From the IMG/VR virus record IMGVR_UViG_3300027816_000062: DNA of 64,000 bases. One strand, given 5' to 3'. Under the pieces are notes generated by a model. That model was not told the origin of the DNA. It ran no database searches and saw only the letters and a program-made list of their open reading frames with translations. Shown piece after piece: positions 25,057-52,986 of this stretch (the stretch's first letter is position 1; the number at the start of each line of letters is the position of its first letter). The translations under genes and the position numbers were made by a program. The stretch is from an uncultured virus (IMG/VR IMGVR_UViG_3300027816_000062) (lineage: Duplodnaviria > Heunggongvirae > Uroviricota > Caudoviricetes).

Positions 25057-25404
25057 ATGAGTGAAGATTTTTTGAACGGTTTTGCTATCGGTGCTGTTGC
25101 GATTATAGTTATTTGGGTTTGCTCGGCAATTAAGGCGAGTATTCCAAAACCTACAAACATGGGGTGGCTCGATGGATCGGGTGATTGGATTGAGGTGGTT
25201 CGTATCGGTCACTCAGGAGTGACTGTGCGACATTGTGGGTATAATTCACGTAATTCACACTGGACATTTAGGCGCTGTGCAGAAGATGCTGGCTGGCCTC
25301 TTTCCAAGATGCTTGATTACCTGGGCCTTCCCGATGAAAAGACACTCAAGGAAGCTGACATGACCATGGGTGAATGGCTTTCACAAAAAAATAAAAATTC
25401 TTGA
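25057..25404 (+). CDS. membrane-anchored hypothetical protein, paralog of 25906..26262
   Basis: N-terminal TM; CA.DAGW...KM...LGLPDE..LKE..MT.GEWL shared. Confidence 0.8.
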   Translation: MSEDFLNGFAIGAVAIIVIWVCSAIKASIPKPTNMGWLDGSGDWIEVVRIGHSGVTVRHCGYNSRNSHWTFRRCAEDAGWPLSKMLDYLGLPDEKTLKEADMTMGEWLSQKNKNS

Positions 25405-25472
25405 AACTTTTCAAAGGTGATCGCCGTATAACAAAAGAACATACACAAAGCAAAAGCTTTAAGGACACAATT

Positions 25473-25541
25473 ATGACTCGCCGATATCTTTCACTGCTAG
25501 GACTCTTATCGCTTTCTCTTGAGAAAGCGGCGATTAGCTGA
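25473..25541 (+). CDS. putative Leu-sensing attenuator leader peptide MTRRYLSLLGLLSLSLEKAAIS
   Basis: AAGGA SD; 7 Leu in 11 consecutive codons using CTT/CTG/CTA/CTC/TTA; followed by alternative hairpins and tRNA-Leu genes. Confidence 0.8.
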   Translation: MTRRYLSLLGLLSLSLEKAAIS

Positions 25542-25602
25542 TAGATTTTGCGATCAGTGTTTAATCCCCGATTTCTCTCAAGGAGTCGGGGATTTTTGTT
25601 TT
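25509..25602 (+). promoter_or_regulatory. transcription attenuator (pause hairpin, antiterminator, terminator)
   Basis: CGCTTTCT/AGAAAGCG; 25521-25537 pairs with 25561-25577; terminator AATCCCCGATTTC/GAGTCGGGGATT plus T-run. Confidence 0.8.
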
Positions 25603-25614
25603 TGCGTTTCACAT

Positions 25615-25699
25615 ACCGCTCTGGAGTAGCCAAACTTGCTACAGGCAACAGTCTTAGAAACTGTCTCTTTTCTGGGTTGGAATCCCAGGGGCGGTACCA
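25615..25699 (+). tRNA. atypical tRNA-Leu(UAG)-like gene
   Basis: ACCGCTC/GGGCGGT acceptor, ACAGT-CTTAGAA-ACTGT arm, CTGGG/CCCAG T-arm, ACCA end; abnormal D and variable regions. Confidence 0.65.
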
Positions 25700-25750
25700 A
25701 TATTGACAATAGAATAGAGGAAAGAGAAAATAGATTTTCGAGTGATAAAT

Positions 25751-25837
25751 GCGGACGTGGCGGAATTGGTTTACGCGCTACTTTGAGATGGTAGTCCCCG
25801 ATTGGGGGTGTGGGTTCGAGTCCCACCGTCCGCACCA
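25751..25837 (+). tRNA. tRNA-Leu(GAG)
   Basis: cloverleaf with long variable arm, TTCGAGT, CCA. Confidence 0.93.
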
Positions 25838-25905
25838 AAAATCCCTCAAATTTTCGAGCCGCGATTGTATATATGAATTATGAATGATTTTCATGGGAGT
25901 GCTCT

Positions 25906-26262
25906 TTGTCTAGTTGGCTGATCGGGTTGATTATCACGTTCTTTGTGATTTATTTTTTCTTCGGGAGTCAAAACCTTGATGATGAAGAAGAAGATTTAGA
26001 GTACTTACATTCTTGGAAAGATGGAAATGGCTTTACGACTAAAGTAATCCAAATCGGTCACGATAAGATCGTTGTAGAAAATTTTAGCAGAAAGCGCGGG
26101 CGAAAAGTTCGGGTGTGGACTGTTGAAGAATGCGCCAAAGACGCAGGATGGTCAGTTGAAAAGATGAGAGATCATCTTGGCCTTCCCGATGAAAGCGCTT
26201 TAAAAGAAGTTGAAATGACTCTTGGCGAGTGGCTTCACGAAAAGAATCAACATCAAAGATAG
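25906..26262 (+). CDS. membrane-anchored hypothetical protein, paralog of 25057..25404
   Basis: paralogy; start uncertain. Confidence 0.7.
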   Translation: MSSWLIGLIITFFVIYFFFGSQNLDDEEEDLEYLHSWKDGNGFTTKVIQIGHDKIVVENFSRKRGRKVRVWTVEECAKDAGWSVEKMRDHLGLPDESALKEVEMTLGEWLHEKNQHQR

Positions 26263-26316
26263 AACCGATCAGTAAAAAATCCCCTGTTTTCGTGGGGGAT
26301 TTTTGATAGATAAAGC

Positions 26317-27442
26317 ATGGCAACACGAGGCTGGGAGCCCACAGACTACAATCCGAACATTATTCGTGATGTTTCTAATCGAACCATTGAAGAATTTGAA
26401 AACGATATTCGATTTTCTCGTGACTGGGGCTTCGTACAAAGTTATGGCCTTGAAAGAGCTACTCAGCTTCTGGGTCGAGCCCCAGATACCCGAGCAGTTG
26501 AATTCTTTAATGAGTTCATGTCTCAGTATTCCCGAGCCGTCGAGCTTATGGAACAGCTAGGCATCAAAAAGAAGATTCTGAAAAAATTCAAGCGATATCC
26601 GATTGCTCCTTGTCTTTATGCTGATTTGAATGAAGAATGTAATGATGTATTGACGGGATCGAAAATCGGTGGAATTCCTGACCAGCGCCAAGCTGGAAGT
26701 GCGCTGTCTTCAAGGCAATATTGTTAGTCGCATCAAGGCAGCTTGGCCCAAGGATTCAAATGGTAAATATATGATATTCGTTGGCCAAATCAAAGTGCCT
26801 GGACACATCGTCGCTCCCTGGGATTATATCATGGGCGAGAAAATAGACAAGTATGGAAATTATGATCGACCTCTTAATGGGTTTAGCCACGGGCAGAACA
26901 TTTTTGAACAAGAGCATACTTATTTAATTTTTCGCAGTGCGCATGCACCAAATTTTGGAGACATGTTCGATTGTGCGATGGTGCATTCTCGCTTCGATGC
27001 CAATGAATCGGTAAAGGAAGATAAATATATTGAGGCTGTGAAAAAAGCTATTCCGCAGTATCGCCGAAGCAACATGGAAGACAATTGTCCAATTTGGAGT
27101 GATCGGTGTCACACGCTAACTGATTACCGAGTTAGCATGACGCTTGATTTAATTCGCGACTTTGAATGGGCAGGTGGGTTTGAAGGCAATGTATTTGATT
27201 ACATAGATTCGTGGAGAGAACACTTCGGTTCTTATGGCACAATTCAAATTTTTGGCGATCCAAGATCACAACAGACCCCACAGCGATTTGCTGAAACACG
27301 CACTGTTTACCGTCCTCGAATGATGCGCCCGTGGCTTGGAATGACAGACCTAAAGCACGATTACACTTGGCAATATAATTTTTGTCACGAAGGTTTTCTG
27401 AGTGAATCAATTATGGGCAAAGTTGATGGAAGCTGTACCTAA
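26317..27442 (+). pseudogene. YwqG/DUF1963-like gene split across two frames (26317..26727 and 26669..27442)
   Basis: SKIGGIPD in first ORF and WPK..G..M.FVGQI in second are normally contiguous. Confidence 0.5.
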
Positions 27443-27486
27443 TTAAAAATCCCCTGTTTTTCATGGGGGATTTTGATATATAAGGC

Positions 27487-27888
27487 ATGGCTGATTATTA
27501 CACCCATTTTTCCTTTGTCGTTGACGTTAAGAATCGTGAACAAGCAGACGGTTTGAAGAAAATGCTCACCCAGGCCAAAAATGAAGAGCTAAATGAAGAA
27601 ACTTTGTACACTCCTTGGAGTTGTGAAACTAAGGACGATTTAACTAGCTTTTGGTTTCACTCTGATGATTGTGGTCAGGTTGATCTTATTGTTGACATTT
27701 TGGCTAAATGGCAAGAAGACTTCAATTACGATCAGCCCATTTGTTTTGAGTGGGCGAATACTTGTAGTAAGCCCAAACTGGATGCTTTTGGTGGTGGGTC
27801 AGTTCTGATTTACAAGGGCGAAGCTCATTACACGAACACTTTTGATTGGTTGACTAAAAAGAAAGCCGAACTTGGAATCGTTGACTGA
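27487..27888 (+). CDS. hypothetical protein
   Basis: MADYYTHFS and FEWANTCSKP.LDAFGGG motifs; promoter upstream. Confidence 0.8.
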   Translation: MADYYTHFSFVVDVKNREQADGLKKMLTQAKNEELNEETLYTPWSCETKDDLTSFWFHSDDCGQVDLIVDILAKWQEDFNYDQPICFEWANTCSKPKLDAFGGGSVLIYKGEAHYTNTFDWLTKKKAELGIVD

Positions 27889-27935
27889 CTAAAAAATCCC
27901 CTGTTTTTCAATAGGGGATTTGATATATCAATTGT

Positions 27936-28070
27936 GCCAAGAAGCACTTGAAGTGCAGTCTACGGATATGCCTTATTAGGGCATGTGATTACTGCGTAGG
28001 AAGGACAGGGTGTAATGAAGTACGGTCGCGACGAAAAGTTACATCGGGTTAAAATCCCAACTTGGCACCA
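27936..28070 (+). ncRNA. tRNA-like RNA with enlarged core (~135 nt)
   Basis: GCCAAG/CTTGGC-ACCA ends, GGG-TTAAAAT-CCC T-like arm, internal hairpins; starts right after promoter motif. Confidence 0.6.
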
Positions 28071-28092
28071 AATTGAAAAATGAGAATCTAAT

Positions 28093-28393
28093 CGGGGCGT
28101 GGCGAAATGGCAGACGCAGGGGACTTATAAAATGAGCACTTGTTTGTGAAAGCTGCAAGTGAATGCAATCAAATTCGGTGAAACCTTAACAGTTAGGCTG
28201 ATGGCAATACCGAGCCAAGCTAACTCAAAACAGAGTTAGAAGGTGTAGAGACTAGATGGTTGCTGCCTAAGTCGAAAGATATGGCAAAGGTATAGTCCAG
28301 ACCACAAAATCCTTTGGGATCGTAGTGAAAGCTATAGTGGTATGAAAATCCCTTAGTAGCAATACTGTGTGGGTTCGAGTCCCACCGCCCCGA
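28093..28393 (+). tRNA. tRNA-Leu(UAA) interrupted by group I intron
   Basis: exons 28093-28126 and 28345-28393 splice to GGGGA-CTTAAAA-TCCCT; CGGGGCG/CGCCCCG acceptor. Confidence 0.9.
28127..28344 (+). mobile_element. group I intron (IC3-like) in tRNA-Leu(UAA) anticodon
   Basis: CTT/GAG P1, AAATTCGGTGAAAC (P), AATACCGAGCC (Q), GTAGAGACTAGATGG (R), AGGTATAGTCC (S), terminal G. Confidence 0.88.
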
Positions 28394-28443
28394 TTAGGTT
28401 ATATATTGATTACTAATGCGCTTTGTGTGCTTTTAGTATAAGA

Positions 28444-28941
28444 ATGTTTGTGTCACGTTTGCAAAAATATACCCTAGAGGAGATAAAAGAAATAATATCT
28501 AAATCAAAATCTTATGCTGAAGTAATTCGATCTATTGGTTTAATTCCTGCTGGTGGAAATTACAAAACATTGCAAAGTTTTGTACATGAATACCGAATTG
28601 ATACTTCGCATTTTCTGGGCTCAGCTTGGGGGCGAGGAAACCAATTGGATTATCTCCACAATAGCAATAGAAAATCATTAGAAGATGTTTTTTCGGGAAA
28701 AGTAGCTTATAAATCAAGCCATAAATTAAGGCTTCGGCTGATTAAAGAAGGATATTTTGAGCATAAATGCTATAAATGTGGACTAAAAGAGTGGCAAGGA
28801 CACGAAATACCCTTGGAATTAGAGCATATAAATGGAGATCATTGTGATAACAGTCTCGAAAACCTCATTATTCTTTGCCCCAACTGTCATGCTCAAACAG
28901 AAACTTATGCTGGTAAAAACAAAAAAAGACGATTAGGTTAA
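28444..28941 (+). CDS. free-standing HNH endonuclease
   Basis: CYKCG..W.G..IPLELEHINGD..DN.LENL..LCPNCH. Confidence 0.9.
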   Translation: MFVSRLQKYTLEEIKEIISKSKSYAEVIRSIGLIPAGGNYKTLQSFVHEYRIDTSHFLGSAWGRGNQLDYLHNSNRKSLEDVFSGKVAYKSSHKLRLRLIKEGYFEHKCYKCGLKEWQGHEIPLELEHINGDHCDNSLENLIILCPNCHAQTETYAGKNKKRRLG

Positions 28942-28981
28942 AAATCCCCTAAATTTTTCTTCAGATTTCGATAAATTAATT

Positions 28982-29230
28982 ATGATCGATGACAAAAGAA
29001 CTTCAGAATGTGTTATTCTTCATATTGAAGTTGATGTTGAGTACCCTGAAGGAATGCATCTTGGGGTTGTTCTATCTGGTTTGCAAAACAATGCGAAAAT
29101 TGCCATTACTGAACTTGATGACGATAGGGTCCAAATCACAGCAAATAGAATCACAGCAGTTGAACATTTTGTTACTGGAGAAATTTTAGAAGATTACCAG
29201 TGGAAAAAGAAAAAAGAATCTCCTCGATAA
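28982..29230 (+). CDS. hypothetical protein
   Basis: promoter motif variant upstream. Confidence 0.65.
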   Translation: MIDDKRTSECVILHIEVDVEYPEGMHLGVVLSGLQNNAKIAITELDDDRVQITANRITAVEHFVTGEILEDYQWKKKKESPR

Positions 29231-29234
29231 ATGT

Positions 29235-29318
29235 GCCGCAGTGGTGGAATGGTAGACACGGCAAGCTCAAACCTTGCTGCCGAAAGGCGTGAAGGTTCGA
29301 ATCCTTTTTGCGGCACCA
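29235..29318 (+). tRNA. tRNA-Leu(CAA)
   Basis: cloverleaf, GCAAG-CTCAAAC-CTTGC, variable arm, CCA. Confidence 0.93.
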
Positions 29319-29386
29319 TATTTTCACATATGCATGACTATGTGAAAAATCCCCTGTTTTCTCTTTCTTGATCGGATATATAAATC

Positions 29387-30016
29387 ATGTTTAATATGAA
29401 TGTGATTCTTTTCAAGAACAATTCTATCGAAGAAAATTATCTTTTCTCTGGTGAAAATTCTGAAGATGTTGCGAAAAAGGCAGAAAGCAAAATGATTGAA
29501 ATTCTTCGTTCAGAAATGTCTAACTTTGACGAATACACGTCGGAAGATATTGACAACATTTTGGAAGATGGATATGAATCCTTTGGAAATGGAGCGGTTT
29601 TTATTACGTGGCCTGACATTGTTGATGTTGATAAGGAGATTGATTCGGAAAATAATTTTGTTTTTCGTGGCACTATTGAATACTCCATCCCGCACATTGA
29701 TTCAGAAGTAGTTCGCCTGTGCGCCGCACTAAATGAGCCCATTGAAGTTGGTCTACAGTGGGAATCACATTATCGCAATGGTAATGGCTACGCTGTCCGC
29801 GTTAATGCAGATATCTACTCAGTTGATGAAGAACTTGCTGCCGAGGAATTTAGTGATTATTGGGATTCAGGATGCGATGATGAAATTCGCTATTCTGGGG
29901 ACTACAATTGGTCCCTTTTGGGCAAAGACTATAAAGAGGCCATCAGTATTCTCCAAAAGTATGTTGATGAGCAAAAGCGTCGTTACCCAGGCTACGATAT
30001 TAGAATTAGCAAATAA
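29387..30016 (+). CDS. hypothetical two-domain protein
   Basis: promoter motif; C-terminal half similar to 19177..19599. Confidence 0.75.
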   Translation: MFNMNVILFKNNSIEENYLFSGENSEDVAKKAESKMIEILRSEMSNFDEYTSEDIDNILEDGYESFGNGAVFITWPDIVDVDKEIDSENNFVFRGTIEYSIPHIDSEVVRLCAALNEPIEVGLQWESHYRNGNGYAVRVNADIYSVDEELAAEEFSDYWDSGCDDEIRYSGDYNWSLLGKDYKEAISILQKYVDEQKRRYPGYDIRISK

Positions 30017-30053
30017 TCCCCTGTTTTCTCTTTCTTGATCGAATATATAAATC

Positions 30054-30476
30054 ATGACAATTGACGGAAAGTTGCTTAAAAGACTAATGTGTAGCAACGA
30101 GGCTTTTGATATTTTGGGTGACATCGTAAGTTGGAATTCTGGAGGTTGCTGGATTCTTGCCGAAGCTCTGCGCCGATTCATTGGCGATCAGGCTACTATC
30201 GTGGCCATCGCTGATGATCGCTGCCAACACCAACATATTGTCGTGAAAGTGGGGAATTTGTATTATGACGCCGACGGAGAGTCGAACGAAGGGCGTCTGC
30301 TGCATCGCTGGATGGATTATGAACGACTCCGTAATCCTCGAATCGTAGGTTTTGATCCAGAACTGGCCGCTGATTTAGAAATTCCTTGCGAAGAAGAACT
30401 TGTAACGCAAGTCTATAACTTGCTGAACTCGCGTCTGAAAAATCCCCTTTTTTCACAATCGGGAGCGCATATATAA
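30054..30476 (+). CDS. hypothetical protein, possible Cys-His-Asp (papain/transglutaminase-like) fold
   Basis: GGC..LA.AL, QH.VV, YYDADG. Confidence 0.55.
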   Translation: MTIDGKLLKRLMCSNEAFDILGDIVSWNSGGCWILAEALRRFIGDQATIVAIADDRCQHQHIVVKVGNLYYDADGESNEGRLLHRWMDYERLRNPRIVGFDPELAADLEIPCEEELVTQVYNLLNSRLKNPLFSQSGAHI

Positions 30477-30479
30477 ATC

Positions 30480-30686
30480 ATGGACCCATTTCTTTTTTAT
30501 TCTACCTATTTTATCTTGGGACTTGGTTTTATGTTCGCATTGATGGCAATCGGAGCGCATCACTATACCAATGGCCCATCTCGTGAACAAGAACAAAAAC
30601 AAAGAATCAAGTTTATTATTCTATCAGTGCTTTTAATAGCTAGTGCAATTTTTCTGGGCCGTTATGCTGCGGGTCTGCTTTTTTGA
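30480..30686 (+). CDS. small membrane protein
   Basis: two TM segments; promoter motif. Confidence 0.7.
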   Translation: MDPFLFYSTYFILGLGFMFALMAIGAHHYTNGPSREQEQKQRIKFIILSVLLIASAIFLGRYAAGLLF

Positions 30687-30752
30687 TTTCATTCTCTTGA
30701 AATGGTTTTAAAAAATCCCCTTTTTTCAGAAAACCAAATCAATATAAAAAAT

Positions 30753-31073
30753 ATGCGAATTCGACCGCAATCCGACCCGAACAAGGAATATCTCATCGAC
30801 TTTTACTACCCGTATGGGAAGCAAGGACACAAGAAGAAGGGCACCAAGACTGTCTGCACTATCTCTGTCGGCCCTGTGGGTAGTCTCGACAAGGACAAGA
30901 CCGAAGTCTCGACCACTACCGTTCGCCGACATAGTACCGATCAGGACAATCTTGTCGTAGCTCGTAATTATGCACTGGCCAAGGCCCTATCCCCGATTGA
31001 AGCTAGTGTCCGACAAGAGATTTGGGAACAGGCTCCGATTCGACGAGCAGACATTTCCCTGGAACTCGACTAA
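30753..31073 (+). CDS. hypothetical phage protein
   Basis: promoter motif; T.CTI..H..D....AR..AL.KAL. Confidence 0.7.
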   Translation: MRIRPQSDPNKEYLIDFYYPYGKQGHKKKGTKTVCTISVGPVGSLDKDKTEVSTTTVRRHSTDQDNLVVARNYALAKALSPIEASVRQEIWEQAPIRRADISLELD

Positions 31074-31200
31074 ACTCCAAAAACATTCTCATTGAGGGAG
31101 AATTTAATCCCTCAATGAGAAAAAACAAAAAACTGCTAACAAAAAGCAGGTGATCGTCGTATAATAAGAGAAGAAACTGAAAAGCACAAAGAGCTATATT

Positions 31201-31323
31201 ATGAATCATCTCTTATCGACGACAATATGTGGAACAACAGGAACCTCAACAAGAGGAATCCTTTCCCTTGGCGTTATCGGCAAGGATAGTGATTCTGATT
31301 CAGGAGAACCCATCGAATCGTAG
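31201..31323 (+). CDS. putative Gly/Thr/Ser-sensing attenuator leader peptide (40 aa)
   Basis: MNHLLSTTICGTTGTSTRGILSLGVIGKDSDSDSGEPIES; codon run GGA ACA ACA GGA ACC TCA ACA AGA GGA; followed by alternative hairpins and tRNA-Gly(UCC), Ser(UGA), Thr(UGU). Confidence 0.75.
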   Translation: MNHLLSTTICGTTGTSTRGILSLGVIGKDSDSDSGEPIES

Positions 31324-31343
31324 CTTTACTGTGATTACAGAAC

Positions 31344-31384
31344 AAAGAGGCTCGATTCGATAAGATCGAGCCTCTTTTCTTTTT
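31344..31384 (+). terminator. attenuator terminator with overlapping antiterminator
   Basis: AAAGAGGCTCGAT/ATCGAGCCTCTTT plus T-run; 31312-31327 can instead pair with 31347-31361. Confidence 0.85.
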
Positions 31385-31513
31385 AGATATGATGTCTGGG
31401 AAGAGAAAGATCGAATATTGAAAATTTCATACAGGTATAGATATAAAAGTGTTAGGGGGTGTTGGATCGATCTTTGATCGCAGGCCTCACCCCCTTGATC
31501 GAGACACATTTTC

Positions 31514-31587
31514 GCGAGATTGGTATATGGGTTGTGCCCTAGCCTTCCAAGCTAGAGAAAAGGGTTCGAATCCCTTATCTCGCTCCA
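31514..31587 (+). tRNA. tRNA-Gly(UCC)
   Basis: cloverleaf, CTAGC-CTTCCAA-GCTAG, TCCA end. Confidence 0.92.
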
Positions 31588-31638
31588 ATTTAAGACACAT
31601 TTCTTTGTGCTGCCAATGGGCAGCTTTCAAAAGAAAAC

Positions 31639-31725
31639 GGATGGGTGACAGAGCGATCTATTGTAGCGGTCTTGAAAACCGCCGTGCCAAAAGCACCGTG
31701 GGTTTGAATCCCACCCCATCCTCCA
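31639..31725 (+). tRNA. tRNA-Ser(UGA)
   Basis: cloverleaf, GCGGT-CTTGAAA-ACCGC, variable arm, CCA. Confidence 0.9.
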
Positions 31726-31823
31726 TTTTGTAACAAAATCATAAAATTCAAAGCAGGTGTAGCTCAGTGGTAGAGCGCCCGCCGCGAAGGTTGATGGTTG
31801 CAATATCGATAAATAGATTATGT

Positions 31824-32240
31824 ATGGCAATAACAAAATACAAAGGAGCCGTCGGGCTAACTAATGTAATGGCCTGTCTTGTCAATCAAAAAGCAAAAAT
31901 CTTTGTTCCAATAGACGAAGACTGTCAATATGACCTGGTGGTAGATTATCAAAATTATCTTTACAGAGTGCAAGTTAAATATGCTGAGGCAAAAAATGGC
32001 AAGATCGTTGTAAAGACGCGCTCAACGAATAACTATTGTGAAATTCGTTATACTAAAGATCATTTTGACGTGATTGCTGTTTGGGACAATGTTGGCAAAA
32101 AAGCATATTTTATTTCATCGAATTTAATCACAGAAGGAATGACGGAAATGACCTTGAGATTAGATGCACCAAAAAACAATCAAACTAAAAACATAAGATT
32201 GGCTCGTAATTATGAGCAATTTAATGCTGCGGTCGCATAG
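31824..32240 (+). CDS. PD-(D/E)XK homing-type endonuclease (group I intron-associated family)
   Basis: KG..G, P.DE...YDLVVD.....RVQVKY, Y....FD. Confidence 0.85.
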   Translation: MAITKYKGAVGLTNVMACLVNQKAKIFVPIDEDCQYDLVVDYQNYLYRVQVKYAEAKNGKIVVKTRSTNNYCEIRYTKDHFDVIAVWDNVGKKAYFISSNLITEGMTEMTLRLDAPKNNQTKNIRLARNYEQFNAAVA

Positions 32241-32308
32241 TGGTCGATTGCACCTCTCTTGTAAAGAGGAACTCCACACCGTGGGTTCGAATCCCACCCG
32301 TAGCTCCA
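32226..32308 (+). tRNA. tRNA-Thr(UGU)
   Basis: GCTGCGG/CCGTAGC, CCTCT-CTTGTAA-AGAGG, TCCA; 11-nt variable region. Confidence 0.88.
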
Positions 32309-32422
32309 TTTTTCGCACATATGTGTCAGGGGTTCGAATCCCCTCTCCTGCTTTGAGTTGAGTGATGATATCCGATCATAAAAAATCCCCCTTTTTCTCA
32401 ATAGTGATCGGATATATAAAGT

Positions 32423-33022
32423 ATTGCTGTGAGCTAAATCAATTGACACAGCATGATGAAACCAAAATCATCTAAAAACAATAAGGTGCTCCATATACGT
32501 CTGGGAAAGATAAATTAGACGTGGACACACTGTGATGTGGACTAATCACAGCGCACTGGGGCATGTGTGCAAGCCCGAAAAGCCTATCTTTACTGATATA
32601 GTTAAAGAGAAAGAGCAGAGAGTTAAGGCTTAAAATAAACTCCATGCGTTCGTAAGGATGAACTCAAAGACGAGTTCAGTTATGACTAGGATACGAGAGG
32701 AGGGAGGCAATGAGTTTCTCTCCTCTCCCCGACAAAGCGATTTCCGACTGCTCATCGGAGAAGTGATCTAGTAAAACACTCAGAAAAACACTAGCGTAGG
32801 AAATGCGTTAATCCCTGATTTTTTATCGGTTTTTAGAGACAAAAAACTGTTCGTATAGGGCTTGCGGTAAGCCTCTTGTTTTAGCTAGGTGATCCTGTAT
32901 GTAAAAACCAAGCGGATGGAACAAATCAATTTGTTTTCGCGAGCAAATGATCCATTGACTTTGGGGAACAGCGTAAGAACGTTTCGCCATGAGGCTTTGA
33001 GCAAAGTCTCGTTCCCCAAAAA
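32423..33022 (+). ncRNA. large highly structured ncRNA (~600 nt), possibly ROOL/GOLLD-like
   Basis: no credible ORF, begins at promoter motif, more than 10 helices, abuts tRNA-Asp. Confidence 0.7.
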
Positions 33023-33034
33023 TAAAAAGATTCT

Positions 33035-33111
33035 GGGTATGTAGTTCAGTTGGTTAGAGCACCTGCCTGTCACGCAGGAAGTCGCGAGTTCAAGTCTCGT
33101 CATATCCGCCA
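33035..33111 (+). tRNA. tRNA-Asp(GUC)
   Basis: cloverleaf, CCTGC-CTGTCAC-GCAGG, GCCA. Confidence 0.94.
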
Positions 33112-33131
33112 AAATTTCCAAAGGAGACAAA

Positions 33132-33347
33132 ATGAATAGACAAATAGAAAGCCTCGATCATCTGGTGTCTCTTGGGCTACTGACATCATATGAGTTTGTA
33201 AACGTGTCAGCCAATAACATTGAGGGCGAGATTTCAGAACATCATAATTCTGATCGATTGAAACTCATATTCCCGAATGGGTTGGAAGTGAAGATCACTG
33301 CGATCACAACAGGCATGGAAGAAGATGCTCTTTTGAGATTGGAATAA
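33132..33347 (+). CDS. hypothetical protein
   Basis: AAGGAG SD. Confidence 0.7.
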   Translation: MNRQIESLDHLVSLGLLTSYEFVNVSANNIEGEISEHHNSDRLKLIFPNGLEVKITAITTGMEEDALLRLE

Positions 33348-33387
33348 AAATCCCCCATTTTCAGAAGAGTGATCGGATATAAGAAGT

Positions 33388-33645
33388 ATGGAAGCAAAGA
33401 TTTATCGCCAGGCTCATCCCCAGGATGAAAATCGTCTTTCTGTTGCCGCTGATATTTTTGCACGGCGGCACCGCCTTGAGATTTCTCACCACAGCGATTT
33501 GAACTACACTGATCTAACTGGGGCAAACAATTTGGCTTTCCTTTGGGAACGCGCAAAGTGCCGAGCATTACTTATGCCCTTGAAGATCAGTGAAAAGCAT
33601 CAAATTTGGCTTGAGAACGACAAAATTGTTCTGACTCCTTACTGA
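33388..33645 (+). CDS. hypothetical protein
   Basis: promoter motif upstream. Confidence 0.7.
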   Translation: MEAKIYRQAHPQDENRLSVAADIFARRHRLEISHHSDLNYTDLTGANNLAFLWERAKCRALLMPLKISEKHQIWLENDKIVLTPY

Positions 33646-33695
33646 CAATGGTCCCGCTTGGGAACACTATCGGCAAGACCAATCGTAGAACAAGT

Positions 33696-33986
33696 ATGAA
33701 TAGTTCAGACAACATTCTTCAGGAACAAGAAATCGAAAGAATTCTCACGTCATTTATCCAATCGCGAAATCGACAAGAAAGAGAATGCTCATTGGAGGAA
33801 TGCCAAGGGATTATTAATTGGGCAGCTGAAGTTATTGTGAATTACACAGCCTTGCAGCTTTTATTAAAAGGTCATGCGGAAATCGAAGATTTTGATGGTG
33901 ATGATGTTCGTCTCACCACTCCCGAAAACATTCAGTTTCATACTCCGCTGATGAATCAAATCGCGAGGCAAATTGAAGAACTTTAA
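33696..33986 (+). CDS. hypothetical protein
   Basis: ORF in array; start uncertain. Confidence 0.6.
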   Translation: MNSSDNILQEQEIERILTSFIQSRNRQERECSLEECQGIINWAAEVIVNYTALQLLLKGHAEIEDFDGDDVRLTTPENIQFHTPLMNQIARQIEEL

Positions 33987-34167
33987 TAATTGATTTTCCA
34001 ACGAAGCACCTTGGCAAGAGCTTTTTCTAACAGTTTTGGCTCCATGCCAAGAAGGACACGTGCCCTGAAACCACGTGTTAATGCTGAAAATATGGGGACA
34101 ATCGGGAGAGACCGATAAAAAATCCCTCTTTTTTGGGGAATGAAATTCATATAAGAAATGTGAAGTG

Positions 34168-34435
34168 AAAGAAAAGTAAAAAGTTCGCCCGAATTAAATA
34201 TCGGAACAATCCTTTCCTGAAGAGGTTTAGCACTAATTAGGATTAAAGACACTTGGAGTGGGAACTCTGTTTGAAAGAAGTAACATATACCCCGCAATGG
34301 TAACAGACCTACCACCGAGGCGAAAAATTGCTAGATAAATGGAAATCTAGCTCAACGAGCACAGACACCTTGTAGCTAAAAGCGTCGCATGTGAGAGCCA
34401 TTGCGGAAGTGGTGTGACAATCGGGAGAGACCGAT
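34168..34435 (+). ncRNA. putative structured ncRNA, motif shared with 58420-58614
   Basis: TTCGCCCGAATTAAATATCGGA...ACCACCGAGGCGAAAAATT present twice; follows promoter motif. Confidence 0.6.
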
Positions 34436-34542
34436 AAAAAATCCCCTTTTTTCGAGGGATAAAACAATATAAAAGATATCAGTGCAGTGCGGAGTGATAG
34501 CTACACGAAGCACCTGGAAAAGCTAACCAGAGACACTGTGAT

Positions 34543-34627
34543 GCTACGGTGGTGTATAGAGCACAGCAGAACGAATTGACCTCGGTCATGCAGGGACGCA
34601 GGAGGCGACTTCGCTCGCCCCGTAGCT
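34543..34627 (+). ncRNA. tRNA-like RNA without canonical anticodon arm
   Basis: GCTACGG/CCGTAGC, GTGT/GCAC D-like arm, GGCGA/TCGCC T-like arm. Confidence 0.5.
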
Positions 34628-34637
34628 ATAATTTTTC

Positions 34638-34725
34638 GGAGAGTAAACCAGTCAAGGATTGGGGCATCCTGGAAAGATGATCGGATGTGCGAACATCTAC
34701 GGGGCAGGTCCGTTGCTCTCCTCCA
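34638..34725 (+). tRNA. non-canonical 8/4-fold tRNA-Ser(GGA)
   Basis: 8-bp acceptor GGAGAGTA/TGCTCTCC, 6-bp D stem, CATC-CTGGAAA-GATG, long variable arm, 4-bp T stem, TCCA. Confidence 0.75.
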
Positions 34726-34742
34726 TTTTCATTCAAAAGAAC

Positions 34743-34828
34743 GGAACGTAATCCCGACAGGTGCTGGGCGATGTTTGCTAAACAATCGGCTTTGTAAAAG
34801 AAGTGGGGTTCGAGTCCTCTGCGTTCCT
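34743..34828 (+). tRNA. non-canonical 8/4-fold tRNA-Ser(GCU)
   Basis: 8-bp acceptor GGAACGTA/TGCGTTCC, TGT-TTGCTAA-ACA, variable arm, GGGG-TTCGAGT-CCTC; no encoded CCA. Confidence 0.72.
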
Positions 34829-34873
34829 AAAAAAATCCCCCTTTCTTTTTGTTCCTGGAGTGATATATAAAAC

Positions 34874-35074
34874 ATGAAAGATTTTGAAGACGTGGTTTTT
34901 GGAAGTTCCGATGAATGGAATGGGGCAGCTGGTATTGTGCCTGAGGACAAGTTTTACGTTTCTTATCCCGATTGTTCCATTCAGATTTGCGACACCGAAG
35001 GAGAGTGTGCGGCAATTCAAAGAGAATTCCGTGTTATGCACCGCCGAAACCCGATCACTGGCGAAGCAACTTAA
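34874..35074 (+). CDS. hypothetical protein
   Basis: promoter motif upstream. Confidence 0.7.
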   Translation: MKDFEDVVFGSSDEWNGAAGIVPEDKFYVSYPDCSIQICDTEGECAAIQREFRVMHRRNPITGEAT

Positions 35075-35114
35075 AAATCCCCTTTCTTTCGTGGCCTAAT
35101 CGGATATATAAGAT

Positions 35115-35297
35115 ATGGAACGAGACTACCAAGTTGATATTAGTGCCACGGCTGTGGTGCGAACCTGTGTTGAAGTTCGGGCTTCCAGCCCCGAAGAGGC
35201 CGTAGGCTTGGCCATCGAAGTTGCTGAAAGCGGCAACGTGATCTGGAAGTATGACGGCGTAAACGATGGGACTATGATCGTTTTTAACGTGGAATAA
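35115..35297 (+). CDS. hypothetical protein
   Basis: promoter motif upstream. Confidence 0.7.
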   Translation: MERDYQVDISATAVVRTCVEVRASSPEEAVGLAIEVAESGNVIWKYDGVNDGTMIVFNVE

Positions 35298-35338
35298 AAA
35301 ATCCCCTTTTTGTTCACAAGCAAAATCATATAAAAGAC

Positions 35339-35689
35339 ATGGGAAACACATCTTACAAACCCACGCTCGGATTCTATATCACTTTTGGTATTTTGAATCT
35401 TGTCACTTCGATTTTTTCAGGCTACGCCGTCTCGACTCTCTGGGAATGGTTTGTTGTTCCCCTTGGGGTTCCTAGCATCGGGCTTTTTCATGCGATTGGG
35501 CTCGTTGTCTTGGGGACTGTGTTCACGATGGGAATCACCCAAGTTCTTGCGATTCTTAACATGAACACTAGCGAGAATGTTTCACCAGAAGAGAGTTACA
35601 CTCGTTTGAATGTTGTCCTCGGGTTTGTTGGCATTATGCTTCCCGCAATTGCTCTTGGCTCGGGATACATCTGCAAGATTTTGATGTAA
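35339..35689 (+). CDS. membrane protein, related to 36514..36882
   Basis: three TM segments; LW.WF..P.G motif. Confidence 0.75.
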   Translation: MGNTSYKPTLGFYITFGILNLVTSIFSGYAVSTLWEWFVVPLGVPSIGLFHAIGLVVLGTVFTMGITQVLAILNMNTSENVSPEESYTRLNVVLGFVGIMLPAIALGSGYICKILM

Positions 35690-35734
35690 AACATTATCCA
35701 GGGGGAGTAATTCCCCCTGGAAGCGAGCATAAAC

Positions 35735-36001
35735 ATGAAATTCAAAGTTTGCAACATTCAACATGGCGAAGAAGATTTTTGTGTCATGGTGTCTATTCAT
35801 CAAGACCCGATCAGTGATCTGACCGTAGTGCAATGCTTGGATTATGATATTGCTTCACAAGGCAAAACCGAAGAAGCTGCGATGATTCGATTTGAGCGAT
35901 GTTTTATTGTCGCTATCGAAGCCTTTGAAAAATACGGCGTGAACTTTCGAGAAAGTCTTGCTGAAGCTCCGCCCGAATACTGGAAAGGCTGCCCGATTTA
36001 A
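35735..36001 (+). CDS. HicB-like fold protein
   Basis: VVQCLDYDIASQGKTEEAA resembles the HicB N-terminal motif. Confidence 0.55.
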   Translation: MKFKVCNIQHGEEDFCVMVSIHQDPISDLTVVQCLDYDIASQGKTEEAAMIRFERCFIVAIEAFEKYGVNFRESLAEAPPEYWKGCPI

Positions 36002-36076
36002 GCTGATATGGCGCAGTGGTAGCGCATCTCCTTGGTAAGGAGAAGGCCGCGAGTTCAAATCTCGCTATCAGCTCCA
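36002..36076 (+). tRNA. tRNA-Thr(GGU)
   Basis: cloverleaf, TCTCC-TTGGTAA-GGAGA, TCCA. Confidence 0.94.
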
Positions 36077-36118
36077 AAAAATCCCCCATTTTCTAAACTC
36101 TTATCGGATATATAAGAT

Positions 36119-36460
36119 ATGAGCAATTACATCAAGAAGGCAGATGAAATTTACAAAGCAATCGAAGACCTGAGCCGAAATGACGATGGAGTTGAACGAT
36201 TTAAGAAAGCCGAAGAAGATGATCTGATTGACGTTGAGGTTTATGGCAAGGACTTTCGTCACGCAAAGCATGGTGAAGGATGCTATGTTCTGCAAATCAC
36301 GATTTGCGATAAGGATTATTGCGCCGTTTGGTTCAACACTGTTGGCGGCGATTGGATTGAAATCAATCACTATGAATTTTCCGAATGGCGTCAGCTATAC
36401 AAGAAGTATATTTCCAACACTTCTAATGATATTTTGGGCGATGATTTGGTGACCAATTGA
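36119..36460 (+). CDS. hypothetical protein
   Basis: promoter motif upstream. Confidence 0.7.
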   Translation: MSNYIKKADEIYKAIEDLSRNDDGVERFKKAEEDDLIDVEVYGKDFRHAKHGEGCYVLQITICDKDYCAVWFNTVGGDWIEINHYEFSEWRQLYKKYISNTSNDILGDDLVTN

Positions 36461-36513
36461 AAATCGGGTAAAAAAATCCCCTTTTTTCATTCAATCAGAA
36501 TCATATAAGAAAT

Positions 36514-36882
36514 ATGGGTAATGATCCTGTAGTAATCAAAGTTCGGGCGTCGGCCTTTTTCGGATTTCTTTTCATGTCTGTTTTGGTGGGCATCTATCGA
36601 GCCTTCGTACTGACTCAAATTTGGCTTTGGTTTGCCACCCCTCATGGAGCCACGCCTTTGACGATCTTCCAGGCTATTGTGATTATGCTTGTAACCTCAC
36701 TTCTGTCATATTCCAAGTCATTGTCAAATACTCAATATAAAGTCGAAGAAAAGACTGAGACTAAGCCGAATGAAAAGTTCAATGATTTTGTGAGTATTCT
36801 TTACAGCAATCTCAACTCTTCCCTAGTGTTGATCACGTTCGTTTACATCACTTGTTTCGCCATCTACAAACTGGCCCCCTAA
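36514..36882 (+). CDS. membrane protein, related to 35339..35689
   Basis: TM segments; IW.WF..P.G motif. Confidence 0.75.
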   Translation: MGNDPVVIKVRASAFFGFLFMSVLVGIYRAFVLTQIWLWFATPHGATPLTIFQAIVIMLVTSLLSYSKSLSNTQYKVEEKTETKPNEKFNDFVSILYSNLNSSLVLITFVYITCFAIYKLAP

Positions 36883-36930
36883 AAGATTTGTCCCCTGTAA
36901 ACCAGGGGGCAAACTCCCCATAATATCACC

Positions 36931-37191
36931 ATGAATTCAGAAACCGAAAAGCAAGAAAGTATTCTTGTCGTGAAAGATCACAAGACGCTCAGAAATCATC
37001 CCGTGCCCGTGCTGAAAGCCTGGTTGAATAGATTTGTTGAGAATGGAGATCAAGTGACAATCAAACAAGTGGACGATGACATTCTATTTACTTGTCCTAA
37101 TCGATCACTTGAATTTTATGTTCTTAAACTTTGTGATGTGATCGATGAATTTGGATTTGCAAAAACACTCTTCCCCGAGGACACGATCTAA
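36931..37191 (+). CDS. hypothetical protein
   Basis: ORF in array. Confidence 0.65.
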   Translation: MNSETEKQESILVVKDHKTLRNHPVPVLKAWLNRFVENGDQVTIKQVDDDILFTCPNRSLEFYVLKLCDVIDEFGFAKTLFPEDTI

Positions 37192-37235
37192 AAAATCCCC
37201 CTTTTTTGCACGACGAAACAGATATATAAAAAGTA

Positions 37236-37430
37236 ATGGTAATTTTCAACAAAGGTGATCGAGTTCAAATCTCCGCAAAAGAATCCACTTCCGTGGATGA
37301 ATGGGGTAGAATCTCCTCGACTGGAACCGTGGAAAGCAACATCCCAGACCAAAATGGCGAAATCTTAGTGCATGCTGATGGCCTTTTGGCTATGATTAGT
37401 GTTCTGCCTACAGAATTGACGAAAATCTAA
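37236..37430 (+). CDS. small SH3/KOW-like protein
   Basis: F.KGDRV.I...GTV pattern; promoter motif. Confidence 0.6.
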   Translation: MVIFNKGDRVQISAKESTSVDEWGRISSTGTVESNIPDQNGEILVHADGLLAMISVLPTELTKI

Positions 37431-37448
37431 AACAACGTAAAACACCTT

Positions 37449-37526
37449 GGGGGTGTAGCTTAGTTGGACTAAAGCAAACCGCTCATAACGGTTAGATCGT
37501 GGGATCGTAGCCCACCGCCCCCACCA
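37449..37526 (+). tRNA. tRNA with CAU anticodon (probably Ile2, otherwise elongator Met)
   Basis: cloverleaf, AACCG-CTCATAA-CGGTT, ACCA. Confidence 0.88.
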
Positions 37527-37568
37527 AATTTCCCCTTTTTTCACCCGATCAGAATCATATAATAGATA

Positions 37569-38048: not shown

Positions 38049-38093
38049 GAGAAAAATCCCCTAAGTTTTGGAAATCAAAAGGATATATAAAAC

Positions 38094-38675: not shown

Positions 38676-38778
38676 TTAGCTTTTTCTATGTCATGTCGTT
38701 TGTAACGATCATAGCCATTGTTCTGATCGTAGCGTGGATTAAAGAAGTGATTCATCACTTCAAAAAGTAAAACAAAAT

Positions 38779-39608: not shown

Positions 39609-39648
39609 AAATCCCCCTTTTGTTTACGATCAAATTCATATAATAGAT

Positions 39649-39858
39649 ATGAACGATTCAAATCGCTTTGAAGTAATCAGCTCAGGTCCATACAATTTGA
39701 AGATTGTTGCGCAAACTATGACTGAGTGCATGGATATGATTCGACGAAACTCTGACATGGTGGACTTCTGGGCAGTTTTAGACCATTCTACGAAAACCGT
39801 GGTCGCTTTAAGCCAGGACTGGAAAGTCTTGCCAACATTCAAACCCGCAGTAAACTAA
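39649..39858 (+). CDS. hypothetical protein
   Basis: promoter motif; TAATG-coupled to PARP gene. Confidence 0.65.
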   Translation: MNDSNRFEVISSGPYNLKIVAQTMTECMDMIRRNSDMVDFWAVLDHSTKTVVALSQDWKVLPTFKPAVN

Positions 39859-51468: not shown

Positions 51469-51545
51469 GACTTTTTTAACAAAAAGTCCCAAAATCATAG
51501 GACGATTTTGTTTTTTGATCGTATAATAGATAAGGACACTTTATT

Positions 51546-51638
51546 ATGAAGACCCACACCACATCAAATACGAATATGGTCTTCACCCGACGCAATTCCG
51601 CGACGGGCGTCCAACAACGCTGTCGGCGTTCCGCTTAA
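51546..51638 (+). CDS. putative Gln/Arg/Cys-sensing leader peptide MKTHTTSNTNMVFTRRNSATGVQQRCRRSA
   Basis: AAGGA SD; codon run CAA CAA CGC TGT CGG CGT; precedes tRNA-Gln x2, Arg x2, Cys. Confidence 0.7.
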   Translation: MKTHTTSNTNMVFTRRNSATGVQQRCRRSA

Positions 51639-51727
51639 GTCGGGCTGACACGTTACCACCTGCAAGTAACTTCTTTTTCGAAGAATTAGCCCGCTCTCTG
51701 AGCGAGACGTCGATTATCATCTCGTGC

Positions 51728-51801
51728 TCGGGGATCGTCTAGAGGCAGGACTCTGGTCTCTGGAACCAGAAGCGGTGGTTCGAATCCATCTCTCCGAGCC
51801 A
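51728..51801 (+). tRNA. tRNA-Gln(CUG)
   Basis: cloverleaf, CTGGT-CTCTGGA-ACCAG, GCCA. Confidence 0.9.
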
Positions 51802-51808
51802 GCTTCAC

Positions 51809-51894
51809 TGGGTCTTAGGCGAATTGGTAGAGCCGCCTGTCTTTGGAACAGGACTCCTGAAAAGGTGGAGGTTCGAATCCTCCCGACCCAGCCA
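51809..51894 (+). tRNA. tRNA-Gln(UUG) with extended variable arm
   Basis: CCTGT-CTTTGGA-ACAGG, CCT-GAAA-AGG extra arm, GCCA. Confidence 0.85.
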
Positions 51895-51966
51895 ATTAAA
51901 GGCTTTATGCATTTTGAAAAAATAATTAAAAAAGGCTTTCTTAACAGAAGTACATAATTAAAACGA

Positions 51967-52752
51967 GTGATTCAAACTTCCAATAAGAAAACAAGAGTAA
52001 AGCGCAGTCGAATTTGGACGATGCCTAAAGACGAGTTCGCTCAACTAGTGGCCTCAAGTCAAACTTATGTCGAAATTCTCCGAGCCATTAACTACACCAT
52101 ACGAGGAGGAGCTTTTCGAATTTTAAAAGAACGAATTGCGACAGAAATGATCGACGATTCACATATATTAAAGAATGGAAGGCAAACCATTTATGCCCAT
52201 AGATTCAATACTCGGTCAGATGACGATATATTTTGCGAAAATTCTACATACAATAGTGGCCCTGCCCTGAAAAAGAGAATGATTAAGCTAGGCTTACCTG
52301 AAGAATGCACAAAATGTGGGCTTGGTGCAACATGGAATGATGAACCTCTATCTCTGCAAGTAGACCATATCAATGGGGTGCGCAACGATAACAGATTAGA
52401 GAATTTGAGGCTTCTGTGCCCAAATTGTCATTCTCAAACCGAAAATTTTGCTGGCAGAAAGTTGAACGCAAAAAACAAATCATGTCCAGAATGCTGCGCT
52501 AAGATCAGTGGATACCGTAAAGATCAGAGATGCCAATCTTGTGCCAATAAGATCAGGTCTAGAGAAATGCAACTAATATCAAAACCATCAAAAGACGAGC
52601 TTCAAGATATGTTGTGGAAAATGCCCGCGACTAGGATTGCTAAGATATACAATGTGTCCGATAAAACAGTTGGTAATTGGGCTAAATCCTACAAAATTGA
52701 CAAACCGAGCCGTGGACACTGGGTCAAAAAAAATACTCCCCCCCCCTTGTAG
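51967..52752 (+). CDS. HNH endonuclease with C-terminal zinc ribbon and HTH
   Basis: LQVDHING.RNDNRLENLRLLCPNCHSQT; CPEC..CQSC; IAK.Y.VSDKTV..W. Confidence 0.9.
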   Translation: MIQTSNKKTRVKRSRIWTMPKDEFAQLVASSQTYVEILRAINYTIRGGAFRILKERIATEMIDDSHILKNGRQTIYAHRFNTRSDDDIFCENSTYNSGPALKKRMIKLGLPEECTKCGLGATWNDEPLSLQVDHINGVRNDNRLENLRLLCPNCHSQTENFAGRKLNAKNKSCPECCAKISGYRKDQRCQSCANKIRSREMQLISKPSKDELQDMLWKMPATRIAKIYNVSDKTVGNWAKSYKIDKPSRGHWVKKNTPPPL

Positions 52753-52818
52753 CTTAATGGATAGAGCGCAGCACTTCGGATGCTGATGTTATGGGTTCGA
52801 GTCCTATCGAGGGGGCCA
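52743..52818 (+). tRNA. tRNA-Arg(UCG)
   Basis: cloverleaf, CAGCA-CTTCGGA-TGCTG, GCCA. Confidence 0.9.
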
Positions 52819-52829
52819 AAATTTAAAAC

Positions 52830-52905
52830 ACGCCTGTAGCTCAGTGGATAGAGCATCAGCTTGCGGAGCTGAGGGTCGGAGGTTCGAACCCTCTCAGGCG
52901 TGCCA
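52830..52905 (+). tRNA. tRNA-Arg(GCG)
   Basis: cloverleaf, TCAGC-TTGCGGA-GCTGA, GCCA. Confidence 0.9.
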
Positions 52906-52911
52906 ATATAC

Positions 52912-52986
52912 GGCCACGTACCCAAATGGTTAAGGGCTCCCTCTGCAAAAGGGATGTTGCGAGTTCGATTCTCGCCGTGGCCTCCA
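52912..52986 (+). tRNA. tRNA-Cys(GCA)
   Basis: cloverleaf, TCCCT-CTGCAAA-AGGGA, TCCA. Confidence 0.93.

Follow-up and report, generated by a model that had tools for sequence, protein, structure and literature searches.

Candidate leader-peptide attenuators with cognate codons upstream of tRNA clusters in a huge phage

The enterobacterial attenuators trpL, hisL, leuL, thrL, ilvL and pheL are the closest described systems to the elements reported here, which are short open reading frames (ORFs) that precede tRNA clusters in a 64,000-nucleotide stretch of viral DNA (the window; IMG/VR record IMGVR_UViG_3300027816_000062), a piece of a very large phage. The likeness lies in a short ORF close to the promoter that carries a series of regulatory codons and, in two of the three window units, in a terminator whose 5′ arm is able to pair upstream, with the position of the ribosome predicted to pick the fold. 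We predict that the phage ORFs encode leader peptides whose translation gauges the rate at which the codons of the downstream tRNAs are decoded, and that two of the three in the window (leaders 1 and 2) are ribosome-mediated attenuators; we consider this probable. The enterobacterial systems regulate biosynthetic enzymes; here the targets would be tRNA genes, and the carrier is a phage. A phage leader also combines amino acids from across its tRNA cluster, for which the multivalent ilv and thr leaders offer a parallel, and leader 2 differs in that it defaults, in folds, to read-through without translation.

Another likeness is to the pheM-pheST attenuator, in which a component of the decoding apparatus is set by the speed of the ribosome on codons of its own amino acid. 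The target there is a synthetase protein operon, whereas the phage design would sense and make the same tRNA species and would thus amount to direct autoregulation. T-box riboswitches also respond to the status of a tRNA in a codon-specific way and decide between terminator and antiterminator, but they bind uncharged tRNA directly and free of translation, whereas the phage codons sit in an ORF with a ribosome-binding-like site. A cmscan search of the whole window (E<=1) gave 20 matches, which include no T-box and none of the Rfam leader families (His, Leu, Thr, Trp). The tRNA clusters of T4, T5 and other large phages resemble those of the window in that tRNA genes are mixed with small ORFs, homing endonucleases and stable small RNAs. 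The clusters of T4, T5 and similar phages are described as transcribed from ordinary early or middle promoters, and we know of no report of codon-matched leaders at such clusters. Gene-by-gene regulation of tRNAs is poorly understood, and the known bacterial controls are global (growth rate, stringent response). We found no description of leader-peptide attenuation of tRNA genes in the full-text literature searched, which takes in few subscription journals; this agrees with the first-pass annotation of this DNA, whose author knew of no described case. The mechanism would be of the classical leader-peptide kind, and what appears new, as far as that literature goes, is the tRNA targets, the phage setting and the bar-code-like leaders of several amino acids.

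The features of the three units are listed below. Leaders 1, 2 and 3 are those of the window, and labels such as L104, L106, L113, L283, L290 and L311 denote other loci.

25416..25432, plus strand: promoter-like motif of leader 1, GGT-N8-TATAAC, which includes GATCGCCGTATAAC
25473..25541, plus strand: leader ORF 1, 22 codons, 7 of them Leu, with AAGGA 7 nucleotides (nt) before the ATG
25510..25535, plus strand: segment 1 (CGCUUUCUC) and segment 2 (GAGAAAGCGGCGAUU) of leader 1, predicted to form a local hairpin, or segment 2 to pair with the terminator 5′ arm
25563..25604, plus strand: intrinsic terminator of leader 1 with its T run (stem 25563-25594, -20.1 kcal/mol)
25616..25694, plus strand: tRNA-like cloverleaf with anticodon UAG (Leu box), loop CUUAGAA and an encoded CCA
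25751..25837, plus strand: tRNA-Leu(GAG)
31149..31165, plus strand: promoter-like motif of leader 2, GGT-N8-TATAAT
31201..31323, plus strand: leader ORF 2, 40 codons, with TAG as its stop
31314..31327, plus strand: predicted antiterminator strand of leader 2, across the stop codon, with 31344-31359 as its partner
31344..31385, plus strand: intrinsic terminator of leader 2 with its T run (stem 31344-31377, -21.1 kcal/mol)
31514..33111, plus strand: tRNA cluster behind leader 2, four tRNAs
31514-31587, plus strand: tRNA-Gly(UCC)
31639-31725, plus strand: tRNA-Ser(UGA)
32226-32308, plus strand: tRNA-Thr(UGU)
33035-33111, plus strand: tRNA-Asp(GUC)
51517..51527, plus strand: promoter-like motif of leader 3 (GATCGTATAAT)
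51546..51638, plus strand: leader ORF 3, 30 codons
51622..51714, plus strand: long irregular helix of leader 3, not a terminator, from the last leader codons to 13 nt before tRNA-Gln
51728..52986, plus strand: cluster behind leader 3, with tRNA-Gln(CUG), tRNA-Gln(UUG), an HNH endonuclease gene (51967-52752), tRNA-Arg(UCG), tRNA-Arg(GCG) and tRNA-Cys(GCA)

The cloverleaf at 25616-25694 is sub-threshold (25 bits against an Rfam cut-off of 29) and was not called by ARAGORN. Between the tRNAs of the cluster at 31514..33111 are a 157-amino-acid ORF and an abundant non-coding RNA. The first-pass annotation had reported short ORFs at 25473-25541, 31201-31323 and 51546-51638, each upstream of a tRNA cluster; all three are present there, with the codons it gave, and the positions bear out the order of ORF and cluster in every case. 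Its description of the window's tRNAs also agrees with ours (15 matched).

The three leader peptides (MTRRYLSLLGLLSLSLEKAAIS for leader 1, MNHLLSTTICGTTGTSTRGILSLGVIGKDSDSDSGEPIES for leader 2 and MKTHTTSNTNMVFTRRNSATGVQQRCRRSA for leader 3) are mutually dissimilar, and their front ends are alike. The motif CGTATAAY occurs three times on the plus strand of the window, each time 19-41 nt 5′ of a leader ATG. GATCG-N0-3-TATAAY is present four times in the 379-kb record G001, which is the nearest virus record to the window; three copies precede leaders and the fourth an ordinary gene. GGT-N8-TATAAY is common to leaders 1 and 2 and to a Lys leader elsewhere in the genome. All three leaders have a ribosome-binding-like AAGGA or AAGAG 7-9 nt 5′ of the ATG. 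Because the leader ORFs are marked by features independent of their codon content, the problem of multiple testing is limited.

Cognate codons were defined as those that tRNAs of the next cluster can read under standard wobble rules, and expectations were taken from 48 long ORFs of the window. Leader 2 has 16 cognate codons among 39, with 5.5 expected (P 3.6e-5); its codons include four GGA, four ACA, one ACG, two TCA, two TCG and three GAT. In leader 3, with CGA CGC and, close to the end, the run CAA CAA CGC TGT CGG CGT, 8 of 29 codons are cognate (2.6 expected, P 0.003). Leader 1 has 4 of 21 (1.0 expected, P 0.018), or 6 of 21 (P 0.002) with the sub-threshold UAG tRNA-like gene counted, in which case six of its seven Leu codons are cognate. 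The codon match of leader 1 therefore gains support if the cloverleaf is a real tRNA. When each leader was scored against the tRNAs of the other clusters, all six mismatched pairings were unenriched (P>0.3). Cognate counts are higher in frame than in the other two frames (16 versus 2 and 4 for leader 2, 8 versus 4 and 4 for leader 3, 4 versus 3 and 1 for leader 1). Among 380 small ATG ORFs on both strands of the window, with each leader ranked for its own tRNA set, leader 2 comes 1st, leader 3 10th and leader 1 16th. The runs of codons read by the following tRNAs, as first claimed, are thus enriched in all three leaders, and the enrichment is specific to frame and cluster.

The leader RNA folds have z scores against shuffles of -4.8 (leader 1), -4.8 (leader 2) and -4.6 (leader 3). 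Mutually exclusive antiterminator and terminator hairpins had been proposed for two leaders, and they are present in leaders 1 and 2. Both terminators (25563-25594 and 31344-31377) have 14 pairs followed by a T run. The duplex of segment 2 with the terminator 5′ arm in leader 1 has -14.4 kcal/mol (3 of 500 shuffles as good), and that of 31314-31327 with the 5′ arm in leader 2 has -16.2 kcal/mol (9 of 500). At four other strong terminators of the window, used as a control, upstream complementarity to the 5′ arm was matched by 289-405 of 500 shuffles.

Switch folds were computed in silico on RNA cut off before the terminator 3′ arm, with the ribosome as a mask of an assumed 27-nt footprint. In leader 1 without a ribosome, CGCUUUCUC and GAGAAAGCG form a local hairpin and the 5′ arm is free (P paired 0.16). 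Five of the seven Leu codons fall within codons 1-12, and with the mask placed at any of these 12 codons GAGAAAGCGGCGAUU pairs with the 5′ arm instead (P 0.64-0.83). Moving the mask to codon 13 or beyond, up to the stop, frees the arm once more (P paired 0.14-0.27). The layout of leader 1, as modeled, is 1:2, 2:3, 3:4. In leader 2 the antiterminator across the TAG stop (31314-31327) has P 0.84, which falls to 0.56-0.74 with the ribosome over the last seven positions (six codons and the stop). Since only a ribosome at the end weakens this antiterminator, termination at leader 2 would need completed translation.

RNA evidence comes from contigs of four freshwater metatranscriptomes (four studies) placed on 24000-40000; leader 3 lies outside this range. 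Leader 2 is covered in all four, with no mismatches (31199-31368, 31224-31381, 31182-31435 and 31185-31458). Two of these contigs end at the terminator (31368, 31381) and two cross it, to end 50-70 nt past the T run (31435, 31458). Molecules crossing the leader 2 terminator exist. RNA cover is limited to a few short stretches, with none on the protein genes between them, which argues that the cover reflects RNA and not contaminating DNA.

In the mechanism that we propose for leaders 1 and 2, RNA polymerase would start at the GGT-N8-TATAAY promoter, and a ribosome would load at AAGGA or AAGAG and translate the leader. A ribosome stalled at a hungry cognate codon would leave the upstream segment free to pair with the terminator 5′ arm, and transcription would run into the tRNA genes. 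A ribosome at the last codons or the stop would cover the upstream segment, the 14-bp terminator would fold and transcription would end. In leader 1, alternatively, a ribosome that reaches the end may let the local 1:2 hairpin re-form. The outcome would be negative feedback on the phage tRNA supply, turned on when the matching charged tRNAs are scarce. We infer leader translation, stalling, a kinetic competition between the folds and a physiological trigger that depletes tRNAs. A trigger by anticodon nucleases or starvation is plausible, and simple homeostasis of the phage tRNA supply would account for the design equally well. The original proposal, leader-peptide attenuation of the tRNA clusters, has computational support for leaders 1 and 2 from the shared promoter-like motif, ribosome-binding-like site, codon match, terminator and antiterminator, position-dependent folds and the same design in other huge phages, and for leader 2 also from RNA; it falls short for leader 3, which has the codon match and for which a terminator was not found.

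The window contains 15 tRNA genes, all on the plus strand (ARAGORN), and its further genes encode an endolysin-like protein, HNH endonucleases, a nucleotidyltransferase and two rII proteins.

12580-14679, window: rIIA
14828-16081, window: rIIB

G001 (378,848 bp, rated complete) is identical to the window at all three leaders and has 32 tRNA matches above the Rfam cut-off. One metagenome scan found three contigs, all identical to the window. DNA identical to the window was present in 14 runs from 10 studies (2017-2025), mostly freshwater, with 5 runs labelled fungus metagenome; judged by this, clonality is unusually high for an environmental phage. A megablast search of 25000-33500 against INPHARED gave three matches, all tRNA-sized. 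A tblastn search with rIIA gave identity of at most 30% among matches spanning most of the protein, and no syntenic relative. IMG/VR scans with the promoter motif gave 19 chance matches to otherwise dissimilar sequences, and scans with five neighboring proteins gave homologs of two widespread genes, with no synteny.

Because the window's phage offers no sequence variation, recurrence of the design was sought in other genomes. Its own genome holds further candidates. The ORF MSDDHHHSTKLHM... is directly before tRNA-His and overlaps it by 29 nt, and MRHNILKRKPKHY, behind GGT-N8-TATAAY, precedes tRNA-Lys(UUU) and tRNA-Lys(CUU). L283 holds a cluster of 12 tRNAs behind a leader of 43 codons that has a strong terminator; 23 of the 26 residues of its core, EIIAAGAFNATAVVFAIPASPWYFEP, are amino acids of that cluster, a match spotted post hoc (whole-ORF P 0.12).

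A first screen covered 60 tRNA clusters in loci obtained for other purposes. The top five, in order, were the His leader of L113, leader 2, the Asn leader of L106, leader 3 and leader 1. The His leader (MFTHSHHIHHHCSEGSGKV) precedes two tRNA-His genes and the Asn leader (MMMNRNNSNNIEGHA) two tRNA-Asn genes. L113, L106 and L104 have a common front end, TTGAC-N17-19-TATAAAT with an ATG about 6 nt later, followed by a cognate run and then a terminator. The T run of the terminator abuts the first tRNA in L104, L106, L113 and L290, which leaves no room for a promoter between them. In masked folds of the His and Asn leaders, the antiterminator persists for as long as the ribosome occupies cognate codons and is lost when it approaches the stop. 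The layout of L104 is a textbook case of 1:2, 2:3, 3:4, and its 2:3 antiterminator helix is a perfect 10 bp (0 of 500 shuffles as good). The leaders of L104 and L283 (43 codons) were missed by whole-ORF scoring because their match is concentrated in a core, as noticed post hoc.

We then surveyed two complete records, G002 (607,744 bp) and G003 (499,572 bp), with 48 cluster starts; 38 of these were scored, the others being excluded because their tRNAs were all Met or suppressor ones or because they lacked a candidate ORF. Seven of the 38 have P<=0.005 (1.3 expected from mismatched tRNA sets) and 13 have P<=0.05 (4.5 expected). The strongest matches are clear-cut. A V/T/I leader, MNKNVTTTVVIITTV..., precedes Ile, Thr, Thr, Thr and Val tRNAs. 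At L311, a 12-codon Leu/Pro run (LPLLPLLPLPLL) stands before eight Pro and Leu tRNAs, and its codons are exactly cognate to seven of the eight anticodons. The leader MFNALYPMPCYP..., with the run LYPMPCYP, precedes Tyr, Pro, Leu, Pro, Met, Cys, Pro and Cys tRNAs.

For a permutation test, tRNA sets were shuffled 5000 times among the 59 cluster starts of three complete genomes. An upstream ORF at P<=0.005 is present at 11 of the 59 starts, including the three window leaders that prompted the idea, against a permuted mean of 1.9 and maximum of 7 (0 of 5000 reach 11). The summed -log10 P is 63.5, against 34.4 +/- 4.6 in permutations, and again 0 of 5000 reach it. The enrichment of cognate codons upstream of tRNA clusters over controls, which the first-pass annotation had suggested testing in related phages, is present over these 59 starts taken together. 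A scan for TTGAC-N17-20-TATAAATAA-N4-ATG gave at least 120 stretches, 80 of which were examined; the matches listed are mostly chance ones on ordinary genes, and the only leader-like ones among them are L187 (the same place as L106), L201 and L228. In L289, L299, L311 and L113 (G002, G003 and one further IMG/VR contig), many leaders start with Met-Phe or Met-Asn right after TATAAATAA-N4, which suggests leaderless translation starts with a conserved second codon.

There is also a broader reading, to which we give an even chance. In huge phages, autogenous and codon-resolved feedback would work through a "bar-code" leader for each tRNA cluster, and any species made scarce by codon demand, host shut-off or an anticodon nuclease would open transcription of its replacement. 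This would be a general, undescribed layer of control shared by several giant-phage lineages.

A number of observations weigh against attenuation by these leaders. In equilibrium folds, the terminators of leaders 1 and 2 have P 0.93-0.96 at every ribosome position; since the terminator always wins at equilibrium, any switch must be kinetic, as in classical attenuators. Between terminator and first tRNA in leaders 1 and 2 are 130-150 nt with promoter-like sequences (TTGACA-17-GAAAAT at 25703 and, by eye, a shared AATATTGA[CA]AAT), so leader-independent transcription is possible. RNA contigs cannot establish true ends or strand. Leader 1 has no RNA cover in the four metatranscriptomes, which is uninformative per se, and its codon match is weak when taken alone (4 of 21 cognate, rank 16 of 380). 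Synonymous codon choice has no significant cognate bias in the window leaders; the enrichment sits at the amino-acid level. Some window tRNAs have no leader, with Leu(CAA), Thr(GGU), Met and Arg(UCU) scoring P>=0.06, and tRNA-Lys (44685) is directly behind another type of promoter, also with no leader. Elsewhere, 25 of the 38 scored starts in G002 and G003 are unmatched (P>0.05), the duplex test for L106 is not significant (232 of 500 shuffles), and L186 has the same type of promoter, a small ORF and a terminator, followed by a coding region and not a tRNA. No diverged relative, cultured or uncultured, was found in INPHARED, IMG/VR or the metagenome scan, and all copies found are identical, so that they offer no covariation. 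Finally, leader 3 has no plus-strand terminator between its ORF and the tRNAs; a conditional terminator was sought as well, and none was found. The hairpin before the sole U run there has -2.6 kcal/mol.

Leader 3 may act via the long helix beside the tRNA 5′ end, by processing or another route. The likeliest alternative applies to leader 3 and to the His leader of the same genome, where the ribosome would act after transcription, on the adjacent helix or the tRNA body; we hold this possible but doubtful. A ribosome that ran through would disturb the helix or the tRNA and alter 5′ processing or stability; if it stalled at a cognate codon, folding and processing of the tRNA could go ahead unhindered. 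It would fit the missing terminator of leader 3 and a helix (51622-51714) whose 5′ end lies in the QQRCRR codons and which no ribosome position other than codons 23-31 opens, and likewise the His ORF, which reaches 29 nt into tRNA-His with no hairpin between. We infer this scheme throughout; the leader 3 helix may be there by chance, or be a site of processing that has nothing to do with translation.

A second alternative keeps the machinery of attenuation and changes its signal, which would be the amino-acid or charging state of the host. On this view the leaders would sense starvation in general and set the timing of tRNA expression by it; they would be neither feedback on tRNA amount nor a reply to nucleases. 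A stalled ribosome cannot distinguish a missing from an uncharged tRNA, as in the trp and his attenuators, and the enrichment at the amino-acid level in the window also points this way. Even so, we consider this signal quite unlikely. Extra tRNA does not relieve amino-acid starvation, hence the benefit would be unclear. The L311 run has one exact cognate codon for each of its seven matched anticodons, which fits the sensing of tRNA species; the Arg codons of leader 3 are all CGN, before tRNA-Arg(UCG) and tRNA-Arg(GCG), and the sole Arg codon of leader 2 is AGA, with tRNA-Arg(UCU) further downstream.

Slightly less likely again is that the ORFs belong to independent tiny early units for small proteins or RNAs, each with its own promoter and a constitutive terminator. 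The tRNAs would then be transcribed from downstream promoters or by upstream read-through, and the codon match would come from phage codon usage or chance. Such units would be in keeping with terminators that dominate all equilibrium folds, the promoter-like sequences before the first tRNAs (25703), the two RNA contigs that end at the leader 2 terminator, the L186 unit with no adjoining tRNA, and the fourth copy of the promoter motif before an ordinary gene. Against this, the match is specific to cluster and frame and survives permutation of the tRNA sets (59 starts, 0 of 5000), and the three peptides are dissimilar despite their like front ends. Two RNA contigs bridge the leader 2 terminator, the terminator abuts the tRNA in L104, L106, L113 and L290, and antiterminator complementarity is above shuffles at the leaders but at none of the control terminators. 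A-rich sequence as the source of the codon runs is rejected on the frame and cross-cluster controls.

Ribosome-mediated attenuation is the reading that we retain for leaders 1 and 2. The window has further features. The abundant RNA at 32340-32983 (core ~32425-32885) is between tRNA-Thr(UGU) and tRNA-Asp, and its contig depth is 53, 142 and 84 in three of the four metatranscriptomes; leader 2 reaches 2.5-7 by comparison. The RNA comes with a AAAAATCCCC...ATATATAAAG promoter-like motif of its own, a terminator at 32858-32874 and a fold z score of -3.8, and has no long ORF and no match to an Rfam family. This is probably an undescribed stable phage RNA. At 34165-34489 and 34742-34828 lie a stretch with RNA contigs in all four runs and no convincing plus-strand ORF and, just downstream of that stretch, a tRNA-Sec-like match (35.6 bits against a threshold of 47) not called by ARAGORN.

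There is a group I intron match at 28116-28399 (58 bits, above the cut-off), which adjoins an HNH ORF at 28423-28941. RNA contigs cover it in three of the four runs, as whole mismatch-free pieces, and in one contig position 28391 is followed by 28130, the junction expected of a circular or permuted intron RNA. The loose end of another contig matches L283 at ~4250-4280, in a second tRNA region, which suggests a second copy of the intron. HNH homing-endonuclease genes of one PHROG family are inside tRNA clusters at 28423-28941, 51967-52752 and L283 ~6640-7079. Also present are tRNA-like fragments or unusual tRNAs (T-arm and acceptor 3′ ends, some with CCA) that ARAGORN did not call, at L283 4247-4290, 4420-4450 and 7488-7620, L282 1360-1440, and 32310-32350 of the window.

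By eye, the motif AAAAATCCCC followed about 25 nt on by ATATAAAA is found before many genes (25838, 28933, 34437, 34826, 37190, 44351, 44637 and 52986 are examples) and directly before tRNA-Lys (44685). This motif probably marks the main promoter type of the phage itself and is unlike the leader promoters. Two tRNAs with a CUA anticodon, of the amber-suppressor type, are encoded at L282 1692-1764 and 1785-1859 (G001 ~294.7 kb). TAG is the stop codon of leader 2 and also of the Lys leader, and read-through of this codon could carry ribosomes across the terminator.

If attenuation by these leaders is true, the level of a single tRNA species would set its own synthesis via the speed of the ribosome on its own codons. 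As each leader lists the amino acids of its cluster, the grouping of tRNAs into clusters would also be accounted for. The elements are short, self-contained and portable, and could serve as codon-specific sensors of decoding capacity. For phages, the design would explain the economical use of large tRNA repertoires and would provide an answer to depletion of host tRNAs, including by anticodon-nuclease defenses.

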